A stretch of DNA of 56,148 nt from assembly GCA_007129255.1 (NCBI GenBank), contig SKVW01000180.1, positions 1-56,148 of the forward strand. The letters run 5' to 3'. This document shows, piece after piece, positions 27,078 to 52,124 of the stretch. Each line of letters opens with the position of its first letter. The first letter of the stretch is position 1. The notes below the pieces were generated by a model that saw only the letters and a program-made list of their open reading frames with translations, searched no databases and had not been told where the DNA came from. This DNA comes from Bacteroidales bacterium. GTDB taxonomy: Bacteria > Bacteroidota > Bacteroidia > Bacteroidales > UBA7960. A program made the translations under genes and the position numbers.

Positions 27078-27578
27078 CTATTTTTCATTAAGGGCTTCCA
27101 TCAGCTTTTTGCGGGTAAAGAAAATCCGGCTTTTAACCGTACCAATGGACAGGTTCAGCTTGTCTGCAATTTCTTTGTATTTGTAACCATCATTATACAT
27201 TTCAAAGGGCTTGCGCTGGTCCTGGTCAATCTTCTTTATTTCGCGGGTAATTTCCTTTATCGCGTAAGAGGAATCCGGGAGGCCTGTTTTGCTCTCTTTG
27301 GATAAATTCAGGTAATAAAGGTCATCGGTTTTGTCAAGAATGGTGTTGTTTCTAACATTCTGCCTGTAATTGTTAATGAAGGTGTTTTTCATGATGGTAA
27401 AAGTCCACGCCTTCAAATTGGTGTTGGCAGTGAATTTATCACGATTGGTTAATGCTTTAAGGTAGGTTTCCTGAACCAGGTCCTGAGCATCCTCATAATT
27501 TGAGGTCAAAGTGTAGGCAAAATATTTAAGGTTTTTCTGAAGACCCAGAAGCTTATAGTTGAATTCCAGTGCTGTCAT
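27078..27578 (-). CDS. ECF-type RNA polymerase sigma factor
   Basis: Region 2 DAQDLVQETYLKA..NLKAW..IMKNTFIN; region 4 YKYKEIA..IGTVKSRIF. Confidence 0.95.
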   Translation of the reverse strand: MTALEFNYKLLGLQKNLKYFAYTLTSNYEDAQDLVQETYLKALTNRDKFTANTNLKAWTFTIMKNTFINNYRQNVRNNTILDKTDDLYYLNLSKESKTGLPDSSYAIKEITREIKKIDQDQRKPFEMYNDGYKYKEIADKLNLSIGTVKSRIFFTRKKLMEALNEK

Positions 27579-28085: not shown

Positions 28086-28970
28086 TTACCCGATTTCTTT
28101 CAGCATTTCTTTAAACTGCTCTGCATTTTCAACCGGAATAATATTTTTGGGAAGTTCTTCTTTAACTTCCTTTAATTGAAGCCCGGTTACAAATACTTTC
28201 TTGTTTTTTACCGCTTTTGACAACTTCCTGAGGTATTCGGGTATTTCTTTTGGGGCAAGGGCTGCAACAAAATAAGTAAAGAGGTAGTCTGTCTCCCGTA
28301 TTTGTAGAATTTCAACCAGATCGTCAAAAGGGACTGACTGACCGAGATAGATCACTTTATGTCCGCTTTTCTTCAGGAGATAGCTGTAAAAAAGCAGGCC
28401 CATTTCATGCAATTCATTTTCGGGAAGGAACAAAAGAAATGTTTTGCCACCCTCTTTTGGGGGATCCGTTTGCCCATCTATGGCGATGATGAGTTTTTGC
28501 CGGATAAGGTTGGTAATGAAATGCTCCTGTGCAGGGTTGATGGTGCCTATTTGCCAAAGTAATCCAATTTTTTCAAGGAAAGGATACAAGATATGGGTTA
28601 CGGTTTTTTCAAAACCCATTTTCAAAATCGAGGATGATAGAACTTTGTTAAAGCCATTTTCGTTAAGTTCTATCATGGAAACCACCAGGCTGTTGATCTG
28701 GCTTTCGTAATCATTGGCAGATCCTGATAATTCGACCACCTTTTCGTTTACCTCTTCCGGATCCATTCTAATGATCTGGGAGATCTTAAATCCGTGCTTG
28801 TTTAGCGTGCTTATGTTTAATAGCTTTTTCAGGTCGCAGTCCTGGTAGTACCTGATATTGGTAGAGGTGCGCTCAGGCAAAACCACATTGTAACGCTTTT
28901 CCCACATCCTGATGGTGTGGGCTTTAATTCCGGTAATCTTTTCCAGATCGTTAATGGAGTATCGGATCAT
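28086..28970 (-). CDS. MerR-family regulator with cobalamin-binding domain (CarH/LitR-like)
   Basis: MerR HTH (YSI.DL...GIKAHTIR.WEKRY..P.R...RYY); W-x9-EH (WQIGTINPAQEH), E-x-H-x-x-G (ELHEMG) and YLG motifs. Confidence 0.92.
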   Translation of the reverse strand: MIRYSINDLEKITGIKAHTIRMWEKRYNVVLPERTSTNIRYYQDCDLKKLLNISTLNKHGFKISQIIRMDPEEVNEKVVELSGSANDYESQINSLVVSMIELNENGFNKVLSSSILKMGFEKTVTHILYPFLEKIGLLWQIGTINPAQEHFITNLIRQKLIIAIDGQTDPPKEGGKTFLLFLPENELHEMGLLFYSYLLKKSGHKVIYLGQSVPFDDLVEILQIRETDYLFTYFVAALAPKEIPEYLRKLSKAVKNKKVFVTGLQLKEVKEELPKNIIPVENAEQFKEMLKEIG

Positions 28971-29349
28971 GGCCTGAATTGGCGTTTAATATTATTGTGG
29001 AATTTTAAAACAAAAATAAATTTTTCCATTTTAGCAGGAATGGCAAAAAAATCAAAAATTCAACAAAGCCAGTATGAAAAAGTTCAACCCTTTAGTTATA
29101 TGGTAGTTTTTTGTTTACAATTTTGTCTTTTTACCAAAACAATTTCTCTTTTGAGAAACCCATGGTATTGTTCCAGCAGGGGGTTTAGTTAAAATAGTTG
29201 GATTATACTTCGCTTAAAAAAAACAGAAAGTTTTGCAGCATAAATGATGAAAAAATTCTTATATTGTGTTGCAAGAAGCAGATAATAATAAAATAACAAA
29301 AACAGCGAAAAATCCCGCCGGAGACCTGGTAAAACAAAGTGACCCATTT

Positions 29350-29721
29350 ATGGAGGATTTAAACATTGAGCCTACTAAAACAACTTTTGGCGTGCGTTTT
29401 CATTCAACCAACGGATTCATGGAGATAAAGGGAAACTCCTATCCAGAAAATGCAATAGAGTTTTTCCAGCCCCTTTTAGACTGGGTGCGAAACTTTACAA
29501 AGGCCAATCGCAAACCCGTAAGGCTGGTTTTCAAAGTAAATTATTTTAATACGAGCTCCTCTAAATATATTTTCAAGCTCATGGAAATTTTTCATGAATA
29601 TCAAAAAAGAGGAAACAAGATTGAAGTGCAATGGCAGTTTTTTCAGGGCCAGGAAGACATGCTTGAAACCTGGCAGGAACTTATGGGGGAACTTGATATG
29701 AAATATCAGGTTGTTAAATAA
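29350..29721 (+). CDS. DUF1987 / SiaC-family regulatory phosphoprotein
   Basis: GNSYPENA..FF.P and YFNTSSSK motifs; about 120 aa. Confidence 0.88.
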   Translation: MEDLNIEPTKTTFGVRFHSTNGFMEIKGNSYPENAIEFFQPLLDWVRNFTKANRKPVRLVFKVNYFNTSSSKYIFKLMEIFHEYQKRGNKIEVQWQFFQGQEDMLETWQELMGELDMKYQVVK

Positions 29722-29754
29722 CGTTTTTTATGAAAGTGCCCCTTTGATTTTTTC

Positions 29755-29762
29755 TAAATTTG
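29755..29762 (+). promoter_or_regulatory. -7 promoter box (TAAATTTG) for the DnaB-like gene
   Basis: TAnnTTTG 32 nt upstream of ATG 29795, with a TTTG further upstream. Confidence 0.55.
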
Positions 29763-29794
29763 AAATTCATTTGTCGTTCTTAAAACCTTATGTC

Positions 29795-30694
29795 ATGGAA
29801 CAAAACACTTTAGAAATCACAGAGCAGACGGAGGTGTTTGGGTTTACCAGCATTCGCGAGCTGGTAAACCAAACACTGAAAAAAGACTTCGGCCGGAAAT
29901 TGAAAAATAATGGGTTATCCTCCGGCTTTAAAGCCCTGGATAAAATTACGGGCGGATTTCAAAAAGGCGAACTCACCACCGTTGCGGTAAAACCCGGCAT
30001 GGGAAAAACCGCTTTTTTATTATCTGTCGCCAATAATATTGCCATCAAAAACAACCATTCGGTGGCTATTTTCTCCTCAGAACGGTCCAACCTAAAAATT
30101 ACCAATCGCCTGATTGAAAGCGAAACAGGGATGTCCCTGGATAAGCTTATGCATGGGGACCTTAAGGATAGCGAGCAAGATCACATGCATTCACTGATCA
30201 GCAGCATTGCCAAAGCCAGTATTTTCCTTGATGATACCCCTTCCTTATCAACCGATGAGCTGGAAAAGAAATCACGTGCCCTTAAGTTGCAGTATAATGT
30301 GGATCTTATCATTGTTGACTACCTGGAGTTGCTTACCACCAGTATTACTGATACATCTTCCCGTGAGGAACAGCTGAGCCGGATCGTTCAAACCCTCAAA
30401 GATATTGCCAGGGAGCTGAACCTGCCCATTTTGTTGTTCTCCCAGATCCCGGGGCATTTTCATGGCTTTGGACAAACCAAACCGCCTTCGCTCAAAAACC
30501 TGCCAGTTTTTTTAAGCGAAATATCCGATGTGGTGATGTTTTTGCATCGAACAGATATTTTCCCTGCTGAAAATCAACCACACGGCAAAGGAATGGTGGA
30601 ACTTATTGTAGCAAAGCATCCTGTGCACAATGAGCAAAATGTTGCCCCTCTTACTTTTATTGAAAGTCATGCCAAATTTGCTGACTTTTCATAA
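29795..30694 (+). CDS. DnaB-like protein, C-terminal ATPase domain only, with degenerate helicase motifs
   Basis: SGF..LDKITGGFQ, Walker A PGMGKT, DDTP, IVDYLEL, REEQL, ARELNLP; no N-terminal domain; KHP in place of KHR. Confidence 0.88.
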   Translation: MEQNTLEITEQTEVFGFTSIRELVNQTLKKDFGRKLKNNGLSSGFKALDKITGGFQKGELTTVAVKPGMGKTAFLLSVANNIAIKNNHSVAIFSSERSNLKITNRLIESETGMSLDKLMHGDLKDSEQDHMHSLISSIAKASIFLDDTPSLSTDELEKKSRALKLQYNVDLIIVDYLELLTTSITDTSSREEQLSRIVQTLKDIARELNLPILLFSQIPGHFHGFGQTKPPSLKNLPVFLSEISDVVMFLHRTDIFPAENQPHGKGMVELIVAKHPVHNEQNVAPLTFIESHAKFADFS

Positions 30695-30714
30695 ATAATA
30701 AAATTTTGCAATTG

Positions 30715-30747
30715 GCCCGGTATTATTTTTTAGTACCGGGCTTTTTT
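30715..30747 (+). terminator. Intrinsic terminator after the DnaB-like gene
   Basis: GCCCGGTA...TACCGGGC stem followed by TTTTTT. Confidence 0.78.
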
Positions 30748-30780
30748 ATTAATTTTCCGGCAAAATTCAAACGGCTTGTT

Positions 30781-31320
30781 ATGGCAATTATAAATGAAAA
30801 CGAATTAAGACGCGATTCTCTGGTAAGTATTGCAAAAAAAATGATCATAGCTGCCCGAACAGCTCCCAAAGCAAAGGGAGTGAATAATATGGCAATGTCT
30901 ATTCTTACAGGTAGCGATATTCAATTGCTTGCAAAAAAAATGAAGGAAATGGGGGAGAAGCAGCAAAATGAAATTTTTACCAGGGATGCCAATAATATCC
31001 GTGCTTCTGCAGATGTGGTGCTGATTATGGGCAGCAAGATTCAAAGTCTTGGGCTGAAGCTTTGCGGCATTTGCGGTTATAAAAATTGTGAAGAAAAAAA
31101 TGAACACCCTGAAGTGCCTTGTGCTTTCAATACTGGTGACCTGGGTATTGCCATCGGGTCAGCTGTGAGTGTTGCCATGGACTACCGGGTGGACAACCGC
31201 ATCATGTATACCATTGGCATGGCTGCCAAAGAACTTGAGTTGCTGGGCAAAGACTTCAAAATCATCTATGGCATTCCCCTGAGTGCCACCTCAAAAAACC
31301 CTTTCTTTGACAGAAAATAA
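30781..31320 (+). CDS. DUF2148 ferredoxin-domain / nitroreductase-like protein
   Basis: AARTAPKAKG, CGICGYKNC..C, DLGIAIGSA, DNRIMY and KNPFFDR motifs. Confidence 0.85.
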   Translation: MAIINENELRRDSLVSIAKKMIIAARTAPKAKGVNNMAMSILTGSDIQLLAKKMKEMGEKQQNEIFTRDANNIRASADVVLIMGSKIQSLGLKLCGICGYKNCEEKNEHPEVPCAFNTGDLGIAIGSAVSVAMDYRVDNRIMYTIGMAAKELELLGKDFKIIYGIPLSATSKNPFFDRK

Positions 31321-31550
31321 ATTAGGATATTAAGGCTGGAACATAAATCATACCGGTCTTTTTTTAACTTTTCTTTGGCTTTTCTCCCTTTCTTTTTTAC
31401 GGTTACCCGGGAATAGACAGTTCTGCCCGGAAAAAATTGCTGTTTTGATTAACCATTCCCGCTGGTAGTTAAAAAAATACGTTTTGCCCTTAATTATTTT
31501 TGTTTTAATAATAAATTTTCTATTTTTGATCTTATTTAAAGAACCGGGCT

Positions 31551-48251: not shown

Positions 48252-48980
48252 ATGTTTGAGAAAATCAGTTTAAACAGGATCCTGTTTCTGGATGTGGAAA
48301 CGGTGCCCATGGCAGCCGATTATTCCGAATTGCCTGAAACATTCCAGGCATTGTGGGAGAAAAAATGCCAGCGCATAAAAACCAGTGAGGATGAAACGCC
48401 TGACAGTTTGTTTTTTGAAAAAGCCGGCATTTTTGCCGAGTTTGGAAAGACTGTCTGTGTCTCTGCAGGTTTCTTCCGGCCCGGAGAAGAAGAAGGCAGC
48501 CTGGTTTTCAGGGTAAAGTCTTATTTCGGGGATTGCGAAAAAACTTTGCTCACAGAATTTTCCCGGCTTCTGGAAGAGCACTTTAATACCCCGGCACATT
48601 TTCTTTGTGCTCACAATGGAAAAGAATTCGACTTCCCCTATCTGTCAAGGCGCATGCTTATTAATGGCCTGGATCTGCCTTTTTTGCTAAACAATCACGG
48701 AAAAAAACCCTGGGAAGTTTCTTTGCTTGATACCATGGAATTATGGAAATTCGGGGACCATAAAAATTTTACATCCCTGGCGCTCCTGGCTGCAGTTTTT
48801 AACATTCCTACCCCCAAGGACGACATTGATGGGAGCGATGTGGCAAGAGTATACTGGCAGGATAAGGATCTGGAGCGAATAGCTCTTTATTGCAGCAAAG
48901 ACGTGGTTACCACCGCCAGGTTATTCCTGAAATACTCTAATACAGGCGCCCTGCCTGATGATAACATTCTTTTCCTGTAA
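48252..48980 (+). CDS. DEDD 3'-5' exonuclease related to the PolB exonuclease domain
   Basis: FLDVET (Exo I), AHNGKEFDFP (Exo II) and YCSKDV (Exo III) motifs. Confidence 0.9.
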   Translation: MFEKISLNRILFLDVETVPMAADYSELPETFQALWEKKCQRIKTSEDETPDSLFFEKAGIFAEFGKTVCVSAGFFRPGEEEGSLVFRVKSYFGDCEKTLLTEFSRLLEEHFNTPAHFLCAHNGKEFDFPYLSRRMLINGLDLPFLLNNHGKKPWEVSLLDTMELWKFGDHKNFTSLALLAAVFNIPTPKDDIDGSDVARVYWQDKDLERIALYCSKDVVTTARLFLKYSNTGALPDDNILFL

Positions 48981-48992
48981 ATCCTGTTTTTA

Positions 48993-50492
48993 ATGAGTAA
49001 ATCTTTGACCCCTAAACCTTTTTTATCCAAATCTACTTTTATTCGTGGGCTGCAATGCGAAAAGTCCTTGTATCTGCACAAAAAAAGACCATTTCTTCGC
49101 GATAAACTTTCGCCAGAGCAAAGGGCTAAATTCTCCCGTGGTTTGGATGTGGGTCTTTTTGCACAGCAATTGTATCCCGGTGGGGTGGATGCTTCCCCCC
49201 AGAGCCATTTTCAAATTGCAGCAGCCGTTAAAAAAACTGCCGAATTGATTGCCGGGGGGCAGGAAATCATTTATGAGGCAGCTTTTCAGTATATGGGGGT
49301 AAGGGTTGCACTGGATATACTTGTAAAAGAGAACGGACAGTGGAAGGCTGTTGAGGTAAAAAGCAGCAAAGCCATATCCGACACCTACCTGTGGGACGCC
49401 TCTTTGCAATATTTTGTCATAACCGGGGCCGGGATCCGGCTCAATGATTTTCATATTGCCTATATGAATGATAATTTTATCAGAAAAGGAGCGATTGATA
49501 TTCACCTGCTTTTTCACTCTGAGAGTGTTTTTGATGAAATTTTAAAAAGGCAGCCTGAAGTAGAAAAGAAGGTTGAAAGTTTAAGGGAAGTTTCCGGTTT
49601 GAAAAGCTCTCCTGATATTCCGATAGGAACTCATTGCCGGAATCCTTATCCCTGTGATTTTATTGGCCATTGCTGGAAAAAAGTTCCTGATGGATCTGTT
49701 TTTCAGCTAAAAGCCCTTGATGAAACTAAAAAGTTCGAATATTTTCATCAGGGTATTCAAACAGCCGAAGCCTTGCCTGAAGAGTTAATTCATGAAGAAA
49801 ACCTTCGGCTGCAAATTCAGAGCATTAAAGAGAAACGGGTTATTACCAAACCTTCTTCTTTAAAAGAATACCATGGGATTTTTGAAAAACCTCACGCTTT
49901 TGTTTCTTCCCTTTCGTTTTCTCCGGCAATCCCTCCCTTTGATAACGTAAAGCCCTACCAGCCATTGGCGTTTTCTTTAGGAGTAAAGGCAGGTGATCAG
50001 GGCCAGGATCCTCCAAAATTTTTTATGGCTGTGCCTGGGGCTCCAATGCCCCTTGATGTTATCCGGGGCTTTTTTGACTCCCTGGAAGGATTTGAACAAA
50101 TCATGGTTTTTGATGGAGCAAAGGAATTAAAAGCATGGAAACAAATGATTTCCGGGGATAATCATCTGGCTGGGAAATTGGATACCCTTTCGGAAAAGCT
50201 TTTTGACATTGGCTTGCCTTTTAGGGATTACCGAATATTCTGGGCCCATATGAGCGAATGCCATAGCCCCGAAACCATTTTGAAATCCATGGGGTTTAAT
50301 GCCAGGGCAGCCAATGGCAGAGTGAAATCGCCACTTGAGGCGGCTTTGCTTTTTGCAAAGCTTACCCCTGAAACAGAAGAAGAGGCCAACGCAAACCACC
50401 TGAAAGACATAAAGGAATATCACTACAACGAATTGAGCTTTTTAAGAGAAATGGCAGGTGTTTTAAAAGAATTATCAGCCAATTCCATGTAA
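48993..50492 (+). CDS. DUF2779-type protein: Cas4/AddB-like PD-(D/E)xK nuclease with 4 Cys plus a degenerate C-terminal domain
   Basis: LSKS.F..GLQC, DILV..EVKSS, Q.FV, CRNPYPCDFIGHC and AIP.F...PYQ segments. Confidence 0.78.
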   Translation: MSKSLTPKPFLSKSTFIRGLQCEKSLYLHKKRPFLRDKLSPEQRAKFSRGLDVGLFAQQLYPGGVDASPQSHFQIAAAVKKTAELIAGGQEIIYEAAFQYMGVRVALDILVKENGQWKAVEVKSSKAISDTYLWDASLQYFVITGAGIRLNDFHIAYMNDNFIRKGAIDIHLLFHSESVFDEILKRQPEVEKKVESLREVSGLKSSPDIPIGTHCRNPYPCDFIGHCWKKVPDGSVFQLKALDETKKFEYFHQGIQTAEALPEELIHEENLRLQIQSIKEKRVITKPSSLKEYHGIFEKPHAFVSSLSFSPAIPPFDNVKPYQPLAFSLGVKAGDQGQDPPKFFMAVPGAPMPLDVIRGFFDSLEGFEQIMVFDGAKELKAWKQMISGDNHLAGKLDTLSEKLFDIGLPFRDYRIFWAHMSECHSPETILKSMGFNARAANGRVKSPLEAALLFAKLTPETEEEANANHLKDIKEYHYNELSFLREMAGVLKELSANSM

Positions 50493-50591: not shown

Positions 50592-52124
50592 ATGGAAGAA
50601 AAGGATCAAAAAAAGCGGGAAACCTCTACCAGAAGAGGAAAAAGAAGTTCATTGTCATTTGATTATTCGGATCACGGAAGGGTCCCACCGCAGGCAACCG
50701 ACCTTGAGGAAGCCGTGCTCGGTGCCATGATGCTTGAGCAGAACGCACTGACCAATGTCATTGATATTCTGAAACCGGCGGTTTTTTATAAAGAGGCCCA
50801 TCAGAAAATTTTTTCCGCCATTTTTGACCTTTTTTCCGATTCCCATCCCGTAGATATTCTTACTGTAACCCAGGAACTAAAAAAAAGGGGAGAGTTGGAT
50901 ATGGTAGGCGGAGCCTATTATATTTCCATGCTGACCAACCGGGTGGCTTCCGCCGCCAATGTTGAATACCATGCCCGCATTGTGCTGCAGAAATTCCTGC
51001 AAAGGGAATTGATCCGCATCAGTTCGGATATCATTAAAGAATCATACGAAGATGCTACGGATGTTTTTGACACCCTCGACAGGGCGGAGAGAGAACTTTT
51101 TGCCGTAAGTGAAACCAACCTTCGACGCAGTTTTGAAGATATGCATTCCCTGGTCAAGGATGCCGTAAAACAGATTGAAAGTGCCAAAAACCAGGATGGC
51201 CATATTAGCGGAATCCCAAGTGGCTTTTCCGATCTTGACCGGGTTACGGCTGGATGGCAGAAATCCGACCTGGTGGTTATGGCTGCTCGCCCCGGTATGG
51301 GTAAAACCGCTTTTGTGCTTTCCATGGCCCGCAATATGGCGGTTGATTTTAAAAAACCCATTGCTGTTTTTTCCCTGGAAATGTCAGGGGTACAGCTTGT
51401 TACCCGACTCATTGCCAGTGAAACCGAACTGGAGGCCGATAAACTCAAGCGCGGGCAACTCGAGCAATACGAATGGGAACAACTCAACTCCCGCCTGAAT
51501 ACCCTTACCGAAGCGCCATTATTTATTGATGATACCCCGGCGTTGTCAATTTTTGAATTAAGGGCAAAGTGCCGGCGCCTCAAGGCACAGCATAATATTC
51601 AACTGGCTATTGTGGATTACCTGCAACTTATGTCCGCTGGCAACGATAATAACCGCGGAAACCGTGAGCAGGAGATCAGCAACATTTCCCGCTCCATGAA
51701 AAGTCTGGCCAAAGAGTTGAACATTCCCATTATTGCACTTTCTCAGCTAAGCCGGGCAGTGGAAACCAGGGGTGGATCCAAGCGTCCCATTCTTTCTGAT
51801 CTTCGCGAATCCGGGGCAATTGAGCAGGATGCCGATATGGTGCTGTTCATCTATCGCCCGGAGTATTACCAGATACTGGAGGATGAGCAGGGCAACAGTA
51901 CCGAAGGCCTTGCCCAGATCATTATTGCAAAACACCGAAATGGCGGACTTGCGGATATCAACCTCCGGTTCATCACCCAGTTTGCCAAATTTACCGATTA
52001 TGGTACGGATGAATATGAATTCTCTGGTGAAATGAAACCTTCCGATTCATTCGAAAAAGGCTCCAATACCATGACCCTGCCTTCCAAAATGAATGATATG
52101 GATGAGGATGATGTGCCTTTCTAA
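50592..52124 (+). CDS. dnaB: Replicative DNA helicase
   Basis: N-terminal PPQ..E.AVLG, AARPGMGKT, FSLEM, IVDYLQL, SQLSR, LSDLRESGAIEQDAD and AKHRNG motifs. Confidence 0.99.
   Translation: MEEKDQKKRETSTRRGKRSSLSFDYSDHGRVPPQATDLEEAVLGAMMLEQNALTNVIDILKPAVFYKEAHQKIFSAIFDLFSDSHPVDILTVTQELKKRGELDMVGGAYYISMLTNRVASAANVEYHARIVLQKFLQRELIRISSDIIKESYEDATDVFDTLDRAERELFAVSETNLRRSFEDMHSLVKDAVKQIESAKNQDGHISGIPSGFSDLDRVTAGWQKSDLVVMAARPGMGKTAFVLSMARNMAVDFKKPIAVFSLEMSGVQLVTRLIASETELEADKLKRGQLEQYEWEQLNSRLNTLTEAPLFIDDTPALSIFELRAKCRRLKAQHNIQLAIVDYLQLMSAGNDNNRGNREQEISNISRSMKSLAKELNIPIIALSQLSRAVETRGGSKRPILSDLRESGAIEQDADMVLFIYRPEYYQILEDEQGNSTEGLAQIIIAKHRNGGLADINLRFITQFAKFTDYGTDEYEFSGEMKPSDSFEKGSNTMTLPSKMNDMDEDDVPF

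Follow-up and report, generated by a model that had tools for sequence, protein, structure and literature searches.

The short DnaB paralogue and its relation to the host helicase

We analysed a stretch of 56,148 nucleotides (nt) from a Bacteroidales bacterium (contig SKVW01000180.1), here called the window, which carries, in addition to the gene for the replicative helicase DnaB, a second and much shorter DnaB-like gene, here called the paralogue. The two genes that are compared throughout this work are the following.

29795..30694, plus strand: coding sequence (CDS) of the short DnaB paralogue, 299 amino acids (aa) plus stop codon, consisting of the linker helix and the RecA-like DnaB C-terminal domain only
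50592..52124, plus strand: canonical dnaB of the same genome, the comparator, 510 aa, with N- and C-terminal domains (Pfam)

In the list of open reading frames (ORFs), the paralogue frame spans positions 29711-30694 of the plus strand and opens at a TTG codon. The start is assigned to the ATG at 29795, given that the initial methionine is kept in all 121 aligned relatives and that an ATG at the homologous site opens each of the 28 orthologous CDS recovered from related loci. The protein is 38% identical over 266 aa to the C-terminal half of the window DnaB (BLASTP, E 4e-62). Pfam assigns it DnaB_C (PF03796; 5e-58, 196.8 bits) as its DnaB domain; the DnaB N-terminal domain (PF00772), which matches the 510-aa DnaB at 5e-32, was not found in the 299-aa paralogue. 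Its score against the DnaB equivalog TIGR00665 is 208.1 bits, under the cut-off of 385.25, whereas the window DnaB reaches 544.2 bits. The two proteins are the only DnaB_C matches in their genome (3.14 Mb, 95% complete).

The AlphaFold2 model of the paralogue, built from an alignment of 40 relatives, has a mean predicted local distance difference test score of 79.3, and its top Foldseek matches are DnaB C-terminal domains (template modelling scores of 0.70-0.78). Residues 1-19 are modelled with low confidence and are followed by a short helix at 20-28, the site of the DnaB linker helix; in the HMMER alignment with the solved Geobacillus DnaB, residues 2-38 correspond to about 144-180 of that protein, and the linker helix is thus retained. 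The first ten residues, M-E-x-N-T-L-E-[IV]-T-E, are highly conserved in the narrow family despite their low confidence in the model.

Retained and lost functional elements

In DnaB, the N-terminal domain forms a collar that binds primase and loaders, the linker helix docks on the neighbouring subunit, and an arginine finger completes the active site of the neighbour in trans. In the 4esv structure, the L-R-E-S-G loop reportedly contacts single-stranded DNA (ssDNA). Compared with these elements, the translation of the paralogue is conserved in one part and altered in another. The Walker A motif (PGMGKT) and the Walker B motif (IVDYL) are the same in both window proteins, and the motif with the catalytic glutamate is FSSE in the paralogue and FSLE in DnaB. 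On the other hand, SQLSR of DnaB is replaced by SQIPG, LSDLRESG by LKNLPVF, and AKHR, the site of the arginine finger, by AKHP. The HMMER alignment with the Geobacillus protein places P276 of the paralogue opposite the arginine of AKQRNG, and in the RESG loop it shows two residues deleted and the remainder altered to L-P-V.

To determine how general these states are, the motifs were counted over 162 distinct members of the clade described below, which therefore comprises at least that number of proteins. Numbering follows the paralogue.

D49, K71, T72, R97, R105, D175 and R252: invariant, 162 of 162 members
E96, the catalytic glutamate: 161 of 162
S114, in the block E-[ST]-E-T-G-x-S: 160 of 162
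E178, glutamine in DnaB: 156 of 162
P237, in the loop that replaces the DNA loop: 153 of 162
Position 274: lysine or arginine in 148 of 162
Arginine-finger position: arginine in 3 of 162 (P0034, P0126 and L214)
ESG or DSG loop: 0 of 162

The arginine finger is thus missing in 159 members. The residues specific to the clade are R97, E108, T111-G112-x-S114, E178 and P237, and of these R97 adjoins the catalytic glutamate at a position where DnaB has methionine. Judged from sequence, the residues that bind ATP-Mg and activate water (K71 and T72 of Walker A, E96, and D175 of Walker B) are kept, and the elements that are lost are the N-terminal domain for primase and loader binding, the RESG loop that grips ssDNA in DnaB and the trans-acting arginine finger.

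These results bear out most of what a preliminary description of this DNA had claimed, namely a DnaB paralogue of about 300 aa without the N-terminal collar domain, and the motif differences quoted above, all of which we found in the translations. The finger loss, together with the other losses, is a property of the clade and not of one gene.

Conservation and selection

A search with the paralogue gave 1282 matches. Among the best 120, nearly every protein has about 296-300 aa (three have 307-350 aa), with 57-100% identity to the query, and the match at 100% is the window's own protein. The CDS is intact in all 28 orthologues. The ratio of nonsynonymous to synonymous substitution rates (dN/dS, Nei-Gojobori NG86) is 0.041 between the window paralogue and its closest relative, L004 (dS 1.17), and 0.061 and 0.090 for two further close pairs; only these three least saturated pairs are informative, since most of the 406 pairs compared are saturated at synonymous sites. 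Across the same eight genomes, the paralogue is 42-90% identical and the DnaB C-terminal domain 73-97%, and therefore the paralogue evolves about three times faster while still being clearly constrained.

By these measures the paralogue is under purifying selection and, being conserved across a minority of Bacteroidales, it is a working protein. The explanation that it is a decaying dnaB duplicate without function would account for the absence of key helicase motifs and for the faster evolution, but it is refuted by the intact CDS, by dN/dS values of 0.04-0.09, by the seven residues invariant in 162 members and by the presence of the gene in eight families; we give it practically no credence. 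The orthologue and dN/dS checks proposed in the preliminary description have thus returned many orthologues and no sign of decay. A TAA codon is reported inside the match at G014:C91:65968-66852, where the open frame encodes 297 aa; it is probably the natural C-terminal stop.

Distribution and phylogeny

The window's own family will be referred to as f1. The short gene is present in 17 of the 18 other f1 genomes, the exception being 89% complete, and it was not found in 12 genomes representing 12 other families of the order in the same set of 30 relatives. All 30 also have a DnaB frame of about 500-540 aa, except G010, in which the second match lies in a 278-aa frame, and G022, which has a 445-aa frame starting near a contig end; in the f1 genomes with the short gene, G010 aside, this DnaB frame measures about 510-527 aa. 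In a broader sample of the order, short forms occur in 21 of 401 Bacteroidales genomes, belonging to 8 of the approximately 148 families sampled; an additional 320-aa frame in G574, which scores like a canonical DnaB, lies outside this count. No short form was found among 400 genomes spread over the phylum, where all matches lie in frames of 468-579 aa.

A profile search of 1.84 billion representatives added about 25 clusters (at 50% identity) of proteins of 282-310 aa. Most of them outscore every canonical DnaB, if two or three long proteins that rank between them are set aside, and all 19 clusters whose motifs were read individually carry the motif states of the clade. The clade members with a named source are all metagenome-assembled genomes of Bacteroidales, Bacteroidia, Bacteroidota or Sphingobacteriia. 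The stretch is present, in full or in part, in sixteen public sequencing runs, ten of which hold half or more of the sampled words, and these sixteen are all labelled as soda-lake, salt-lake or alkali-sediment metagenomes. Metagenome loci of the paralogue were scanned with alignment A3.

The maximum-likelihood tree has 85 rows. Of these, 22 are short forms and 33 are C-terminal regions of Bacteroidota DnaBs, namely that of the window and 32 taken randomly out of 91 loci. The remaining 30 rows are other representatives, of which 22, randomly picked, have 430-480 aa and 8 have 495-535 aa. The tree omits P0131, P0141, P0142, P0145 and others, and was obtained by a short search with no bootstrap and with midpoint rooting only. 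The 22 short forms make up one side of a single branch with a support of 100 in the Shimodaira-Hasegawa-like approximate likelihood ratio test (SH-aLRT). This branch is long (0.42 plus 0.70) and lies outside all canonical DnaBs sampled, so that in this quick tree the clade is not nested within the DnaBs of its host lineages. By sequence, the short forms are thus one clade with its own invariant residues, co-resident with a normal DnaB where this was checked.

A metagenomic protein of 573 aa, P0131, matches the clade profile over two stretches, and in the first of them Walker A is degenerate (G-E-R-S); this protein may represent a pseudo-DnaB in tandem or fused form.

Comparison with known DnaB-like and RecA-fold proteins

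With DnaB (TIGR00665; structures 2r6a, 4esv and 4nmn), the paralogue shares the C-terminal RecA-like fold, the linker helix, both Walker motifs, the catalytic glutamate and the conserved R105 and R252. It differs in the lost elements, in its clade-specific residues, in scoring below the equivalog cut-off and in existing in addition to DnaB. Short proteins with DnaB_C as their only domain are common among both bacteria and phages (phrog_243; Atlas clusters of 285-340 aa), and they have the same architecture and a similar length. However, several short forms outside the clade (P0148, P0183, P0188, P0199, P0234 and P0244) keep the RESG loop and a K-x-R finger, and are plausibly true helicases or fragments, whereas the paralogue clade is chromosomal and has lost both. 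Among phage profiles, the paralogue matches phrog_243 (2e-38) and phrog_19 (9e-47); the host DnaB matches them better, and the context is one of chromosomal housekeeping genes.

KaiC and RadA/RadB are RecA-fold proteins in which ATP powers a switch or a timer instead of translocation. The paralogue has a weak similarity to them in the P-loop core (PF06745 at 27.6 bits for a cut-off of 26.6; NCBIfam RadB and KaiC models at E 1e-4 to 1e-6); unlike KaiC it has a single domain, and its PF06745 match lies under the 196.8-bit DnaB_C match. The divergent DnaB-like ATPase family of conflict systems, PF20307, gave no match to the paralogue at E values of 0.01 or lower. Paralogues of core ATPases with a non-catalytic or regulatory role are known in the loader DnaC, a relative of DnaA, and in the Rad51 paralogues. 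By analogy, the paralogue would likewise have lost motor function and kept nucleotide binding and assembly surfaces; it has no homology to these proteins, and the loader DciA is present separately.

Genomic neighbourhood and transcription signals

The features around the paralogue are listed below.

27078-27578, minus strand: extracytoplasmic function (ECF) sigma factor beside CarH, a neighbour within the window's family
28086..28970, minus strand: MerR/B12-binding (CarH-like) regulator, divergent, a neighbour in the window's own family only
29350..29721, plus strand: SiaC-family (PF09345) gene, directly upstream, the sole SiaC in the genome, an optional neighbour
29755..29762, plus strand: TAAATTTG, match to the Bacteroidetes -7 consensus TAnnTTTG, 40 nt before the ATG
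30714..30742, plus strand: intrinsic-terminator-like hairpin with a 12-bp stem (6 GC pairs) and then a T run, 20 nt past the stop codon
30781..31320, plus strand: DUF2148 (ferredoxin-domain) gene, directly downstream, a recurrent but not obligate neighbour

TAnnTTTG is the -7 promoter consensus of Bacteroidetes. In the window, the paralogue closes a short transcription unit, with the promoter box ahead of it and a strong terminator behind it, two signals that the preliminary description had also noted. The word TAAATTTG by itself does not exceed what chance would give (6 occurrences in the window against 8.35 expected); of 29 distinct spacers between SiaC and the paralogue, 14 carry a TAnnTTTG box that precedes the ATG by 35-49 nt. 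In one metatranscriptome run, a fraction of 0.62 of the words sampled from 28900-31400 is present, a value that does not specify the gene covered and that DNA carry-over could explain.

The gene order of f1 is, on the minus strand, the ECF sigma factor and the CarH-like regulator, and on the plus strand the optional SiaC, the paralogue, DUF2148, thiol peroxidase and then dnaK, DnaK having been recognised from its translation only. In locus L025 the flanks are rearranged and the block ECF-CarH-paralogue-DUF2148 is retained. Pfam identifies 23 neighbouring ORFs of the window as housekeeping genes (seryl-tRNA synthetase, KsgA, aspartokinase, L28, Ffh, FolD and others), and no phage or plasmid marks were found among them, in line with the preliminary description. 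The paralogue has no weighty match to a defence family either (best PADLOC E 2.7e-4). Directly before the canonical dnaB, positions 48252-50492 of the plus strand hold a PolB-exonuclease-like/RNase H-fold gene and a 499-aa DUF2779 protein.

In the window the paralogue lies amid stress genes, CarH with its ECF sigma factor and thiol peroxidase, and yet its neighbours differ from family to family. In other lineages they are of quite another kind: one set comprises superoxide dismutase, an aminotransferase, an RDD protein and a decarboxylase, a second a glycosyltransferase, a MORN protein and UbiD, and a third, in a divergent lineage, subunits of pyruvate:ferredoxin oxidoreductase, DUF2400 and a gene of the uracil-DNA glycosylase (UDG) family. 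Because of these differences, genomic context fixes no role for the paralogue.

The DUF2148 protein has the cysteine pattern C-x2-C-x5-C...C. Its gene lies downstream of the paralogue in every genome locus of two sets (11 of 11 and 17 of 17), among which two pairs are identical in sequence, and in 41 of the 48 metagenome loci L136-L183 (of the other seven, five reach a contig edge and two carry UbiD). It is directly downstream in f1 and in three further families, whose paralogues are 34-41% identical to that of the window. Over 68 loci, not deduplicated, the spacer has a median of 69 bp (range 3-229). In the order sample, DUF2148 is single-copy in 112 of 401 genomes, 98 of which have no paralogue; in the 21 genomes with the paralogue it is adjacent in 9, elsewhere in 5 and absent in 7. 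The listings and abstracts returned by our literature searches on DUF2148 included no paper that mentions this domain or a protein like the paralogue.

SiaC is present in the window's genome and in 10 of the 18 other f1 genomes; all 11 have one copy just upstream of the paralogue, 4 of them having no other. No SiaC is present in seven f1 genomes with the paralogue. In one other family a SiaC-like gene adjoins the paralogue divergently, and other Bacteroidales have as many as 16 copies of SiaC. Among the 26 SiaC proteins encoded next to the paralogue, N67-T68 is invariant, within an N-T-S-S motif (alignment A4). The gene at 29350-29721 adjoins neither a HATPase_c_2 kinase nor a SpoIIE phosphatase, both of which lie on other contigs of the genome. 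A complex prediction for the paralogue and SiaC scored 0.00 in both runs, which were made without controls, and counts neither way. In metagenome locus L139, an insert of about 4 kb separates CarH from SiaC, and SiaC, the paralogue and DUF2148 stay together.

The regulator at 28086-28970 contains, by eye, the motifs W-x9-E-H and E-x-H-x-x-G, which we take to be typical of CarH-type adenosylcobalamin photoreceptors. The neighbouring sigma factor keeps 80-96% identity across loci whose CarH, paralogue and DUF2148 proteins share no more than 50-75%, and is unusually constrained for an ECF sigma. In loci without SiaC (e.g., L027, L166 and L173), the spacer between CarH and the paralogue contains the conserved block TAAC-N13-AAAAAGTTCA-N3-TTG-N20-TTATATTG; in the window spacer (28971-29349) the two halves of this block are apart, at spacer offsets 109 and 289. 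We read the block as two putative back-to-back promoters: the minus-strand TGAACTTTTT-N14-GTTA resembles an ECF-type promoter that would serve the carH-sigma operon, and the part TTG...TATATTG resembles a Bacteroidetes housekeeping promoter facing the paralogue. A CarH operator was sought in this spacer, and no clear repeat could be defined.

Interpretation and alternative explanations

On balance, and with modest confidence, we favour the explanation that the paralogue is a DnaB-derived, ATP-binding and probably oligomeric protein without translocation, that is, a nucleotide-dependent switch or adaptor and not a motor. It would bind ATP through the retained Walker A/B pocket and would assemble by way of the linker helix, as rings or as smaller oligomers, whether with further copies of itself or with C-terminal domains of DnaB; since it would be unable to walk along ssDNA, it would act as a switch or an adaptor. 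The acidic and probably disordered N-terminal peptide would be the likeliest handle for a partner. Within this explanation, a target other than the two that follow is a fair possibility that falls short of being probable, while the replicative DnaB ring and a role of the paralogue's own in DNA repair or stress are each, and equally, rather doubtful. The preliminary description had proposed that the protein binds nucleotide, may oligomerise and does not translocate, and this is the molecular reading best supported by the sequences, because the nucleotide residues are invariant and the losses are clade-wide. Its term “pseudo-helicase” may overstate the case given the invariant R97 and the basic residue at 274, with which ATP hydrolysis may survive.

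Several points weigh against this explanation. The invariant R97 and the lysine or arginine at 274 may restore hydrolysis, in which case “non-motor” would rest mainly on the lost DNA loop, and three members have an arginine at the finger position. A subunit that slots into conserved DnaB rings fits poorly with a protein that evolves much faster than DnaB_C in the same genomes. The tree comes from a quick search and has a long branch and only a midpoint root; the variation of neighbours among families leaves the role unfixed by context, and the adjacency to CarH and ECF is limited to one family. The preliminary description had linked the paralogue to the CarH/ECF module, which holds within the window's family and does not extend beyond it, CarH being adjacent nowhere else among the 8 families.

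The same residues can be read in favour of an active enzyme with a rewired site, in which R97 would replace the lost finger in cis, and the protein would hydrolyse ATP and use new loop residues (the P237 region and E-T-G-x-S) to act on DNA or a different polymer, for example in repair. We consider this unlikely, though it is the strongest of the rivals. R97 is invariant where DnaB has methionine, next to a glutamate kept in 161 of 162 members, and position 274 is basic in 148; a Glu-Arg pair acting side by side on the gamma-phosphate is known in the Rho helicase. With P237 in 153 of 162 members, the loop that took the place of the DNA loop is conserved as well, which argues for a new function and not for mere loss, and the gene stands among DUF2400 and UDG-family genes in one divergent lineage. 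However, the region replacing the DNA loop has no conserved basic residue, and no DNA-repair neighbour recurs across families. Less likely still is that the paralogue is the ATP-binding partner of a signalling module, being the target or the nucleotide-dependent modifier of the SiaC phosphoprotein, of the DUF2148 iron-sulfur-type protein or of both. This would agree with the upstream SiaC copy in all 11 SiaC-bearing f1 genomes (the sole copy in 4), with its invariant N67-T68 and the SiaC-like neighbour in a second family, and with DUF2148 directly downstream in 4 families and in 41 of the 48 loci L136-L183. It is weakened by the 7 f1 genomes that have the paralogue and no SiaC, by the order-wide counts for DUF2148 (absent in 7 and elsewhere in 5 of the 21 paralogue genomes, and present in 98 genomes without a paralogue), by spacers that are mostly 50-140 bp and by the terminator that, in the window, stands between the paralogue and DUF2148. 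Moreover, kin are not independent, so that shared ancestry could explain much of the adjacency.

An origin in a phage, plasmid or defence island, of which the gene would be a remnant or a cargo, as a short DnaB-like helicase of the kind found in many phages, would be consistent with the phrog_243 match, which covers 253 of 273 positions, with the abundance of short DnaB_C-only clusters in phages and with a clade that is not nested in host DnaBs. We regard it as very improbable: the neighbours are housekeeping genes in an order held over tens of kb in related genomes, the gene is single-copy at a stable chromosomal site in each family, its best defence match is negligible, and canonical DnaB matches the same phage profiles better. 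The replacement of a helicase loader is likewise rejected as an explanation. DciA is the usual helicase loader, and since it (PF05258) is encoded in the window's genome and in 17 of the 18 other f1 genomes, the paralogue is no stand-in for a missing loader.

In the most far-reaching of the readings considered, a pseudo-helicase born from DnaB could gate the replicative helicase in times of stress, which we find improbable, slightly more so than the signalling module. The paralogue would be made from a promoter region shared with the B12/light-sensing CarH and the ECF sigma factor, would insert into or cap DnaB C-terminal rings through its linker helix and, because it would offer neither an arginine finger nor a DNA loop, would stall unwinding until the stress is over; in some lineages a SiaC-type phosphoprotein would tune it.

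Significance

To our knowledge, bacterial replicative helicases are controlled through loaders and initiators and not through paralogues of their own. The listings and abstracts found in our literature searches on DnaB pseudohelicases, paralogues and truncated forms contained no description of a protein such as this one. What is new, as read from the sequences, is a chromosomal clade that extends across several families, in which the motor elements have been lost throughout and invariant residues of its own have been gained. It is important to note that the annotation “replicative DNA helicase”, which several source databases use for its relatives, should not be applied to the paralogue.

The clade is a natural separation-of-function variant of DnaB, in which the pocket and the assembly helix have long been kept and the translocation elements discarded. 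If the gating scenario were true, this would be the first case of a bacterial replicative helicase inhibited or modulated by a dedicated paralogue. More generally, if it acts on DnaB, replication would come under an additional, new level of control in this abundant anaerobic order, and if it acts elsewhere, it would be a case of a hexameric motor fold recycled as a switch.

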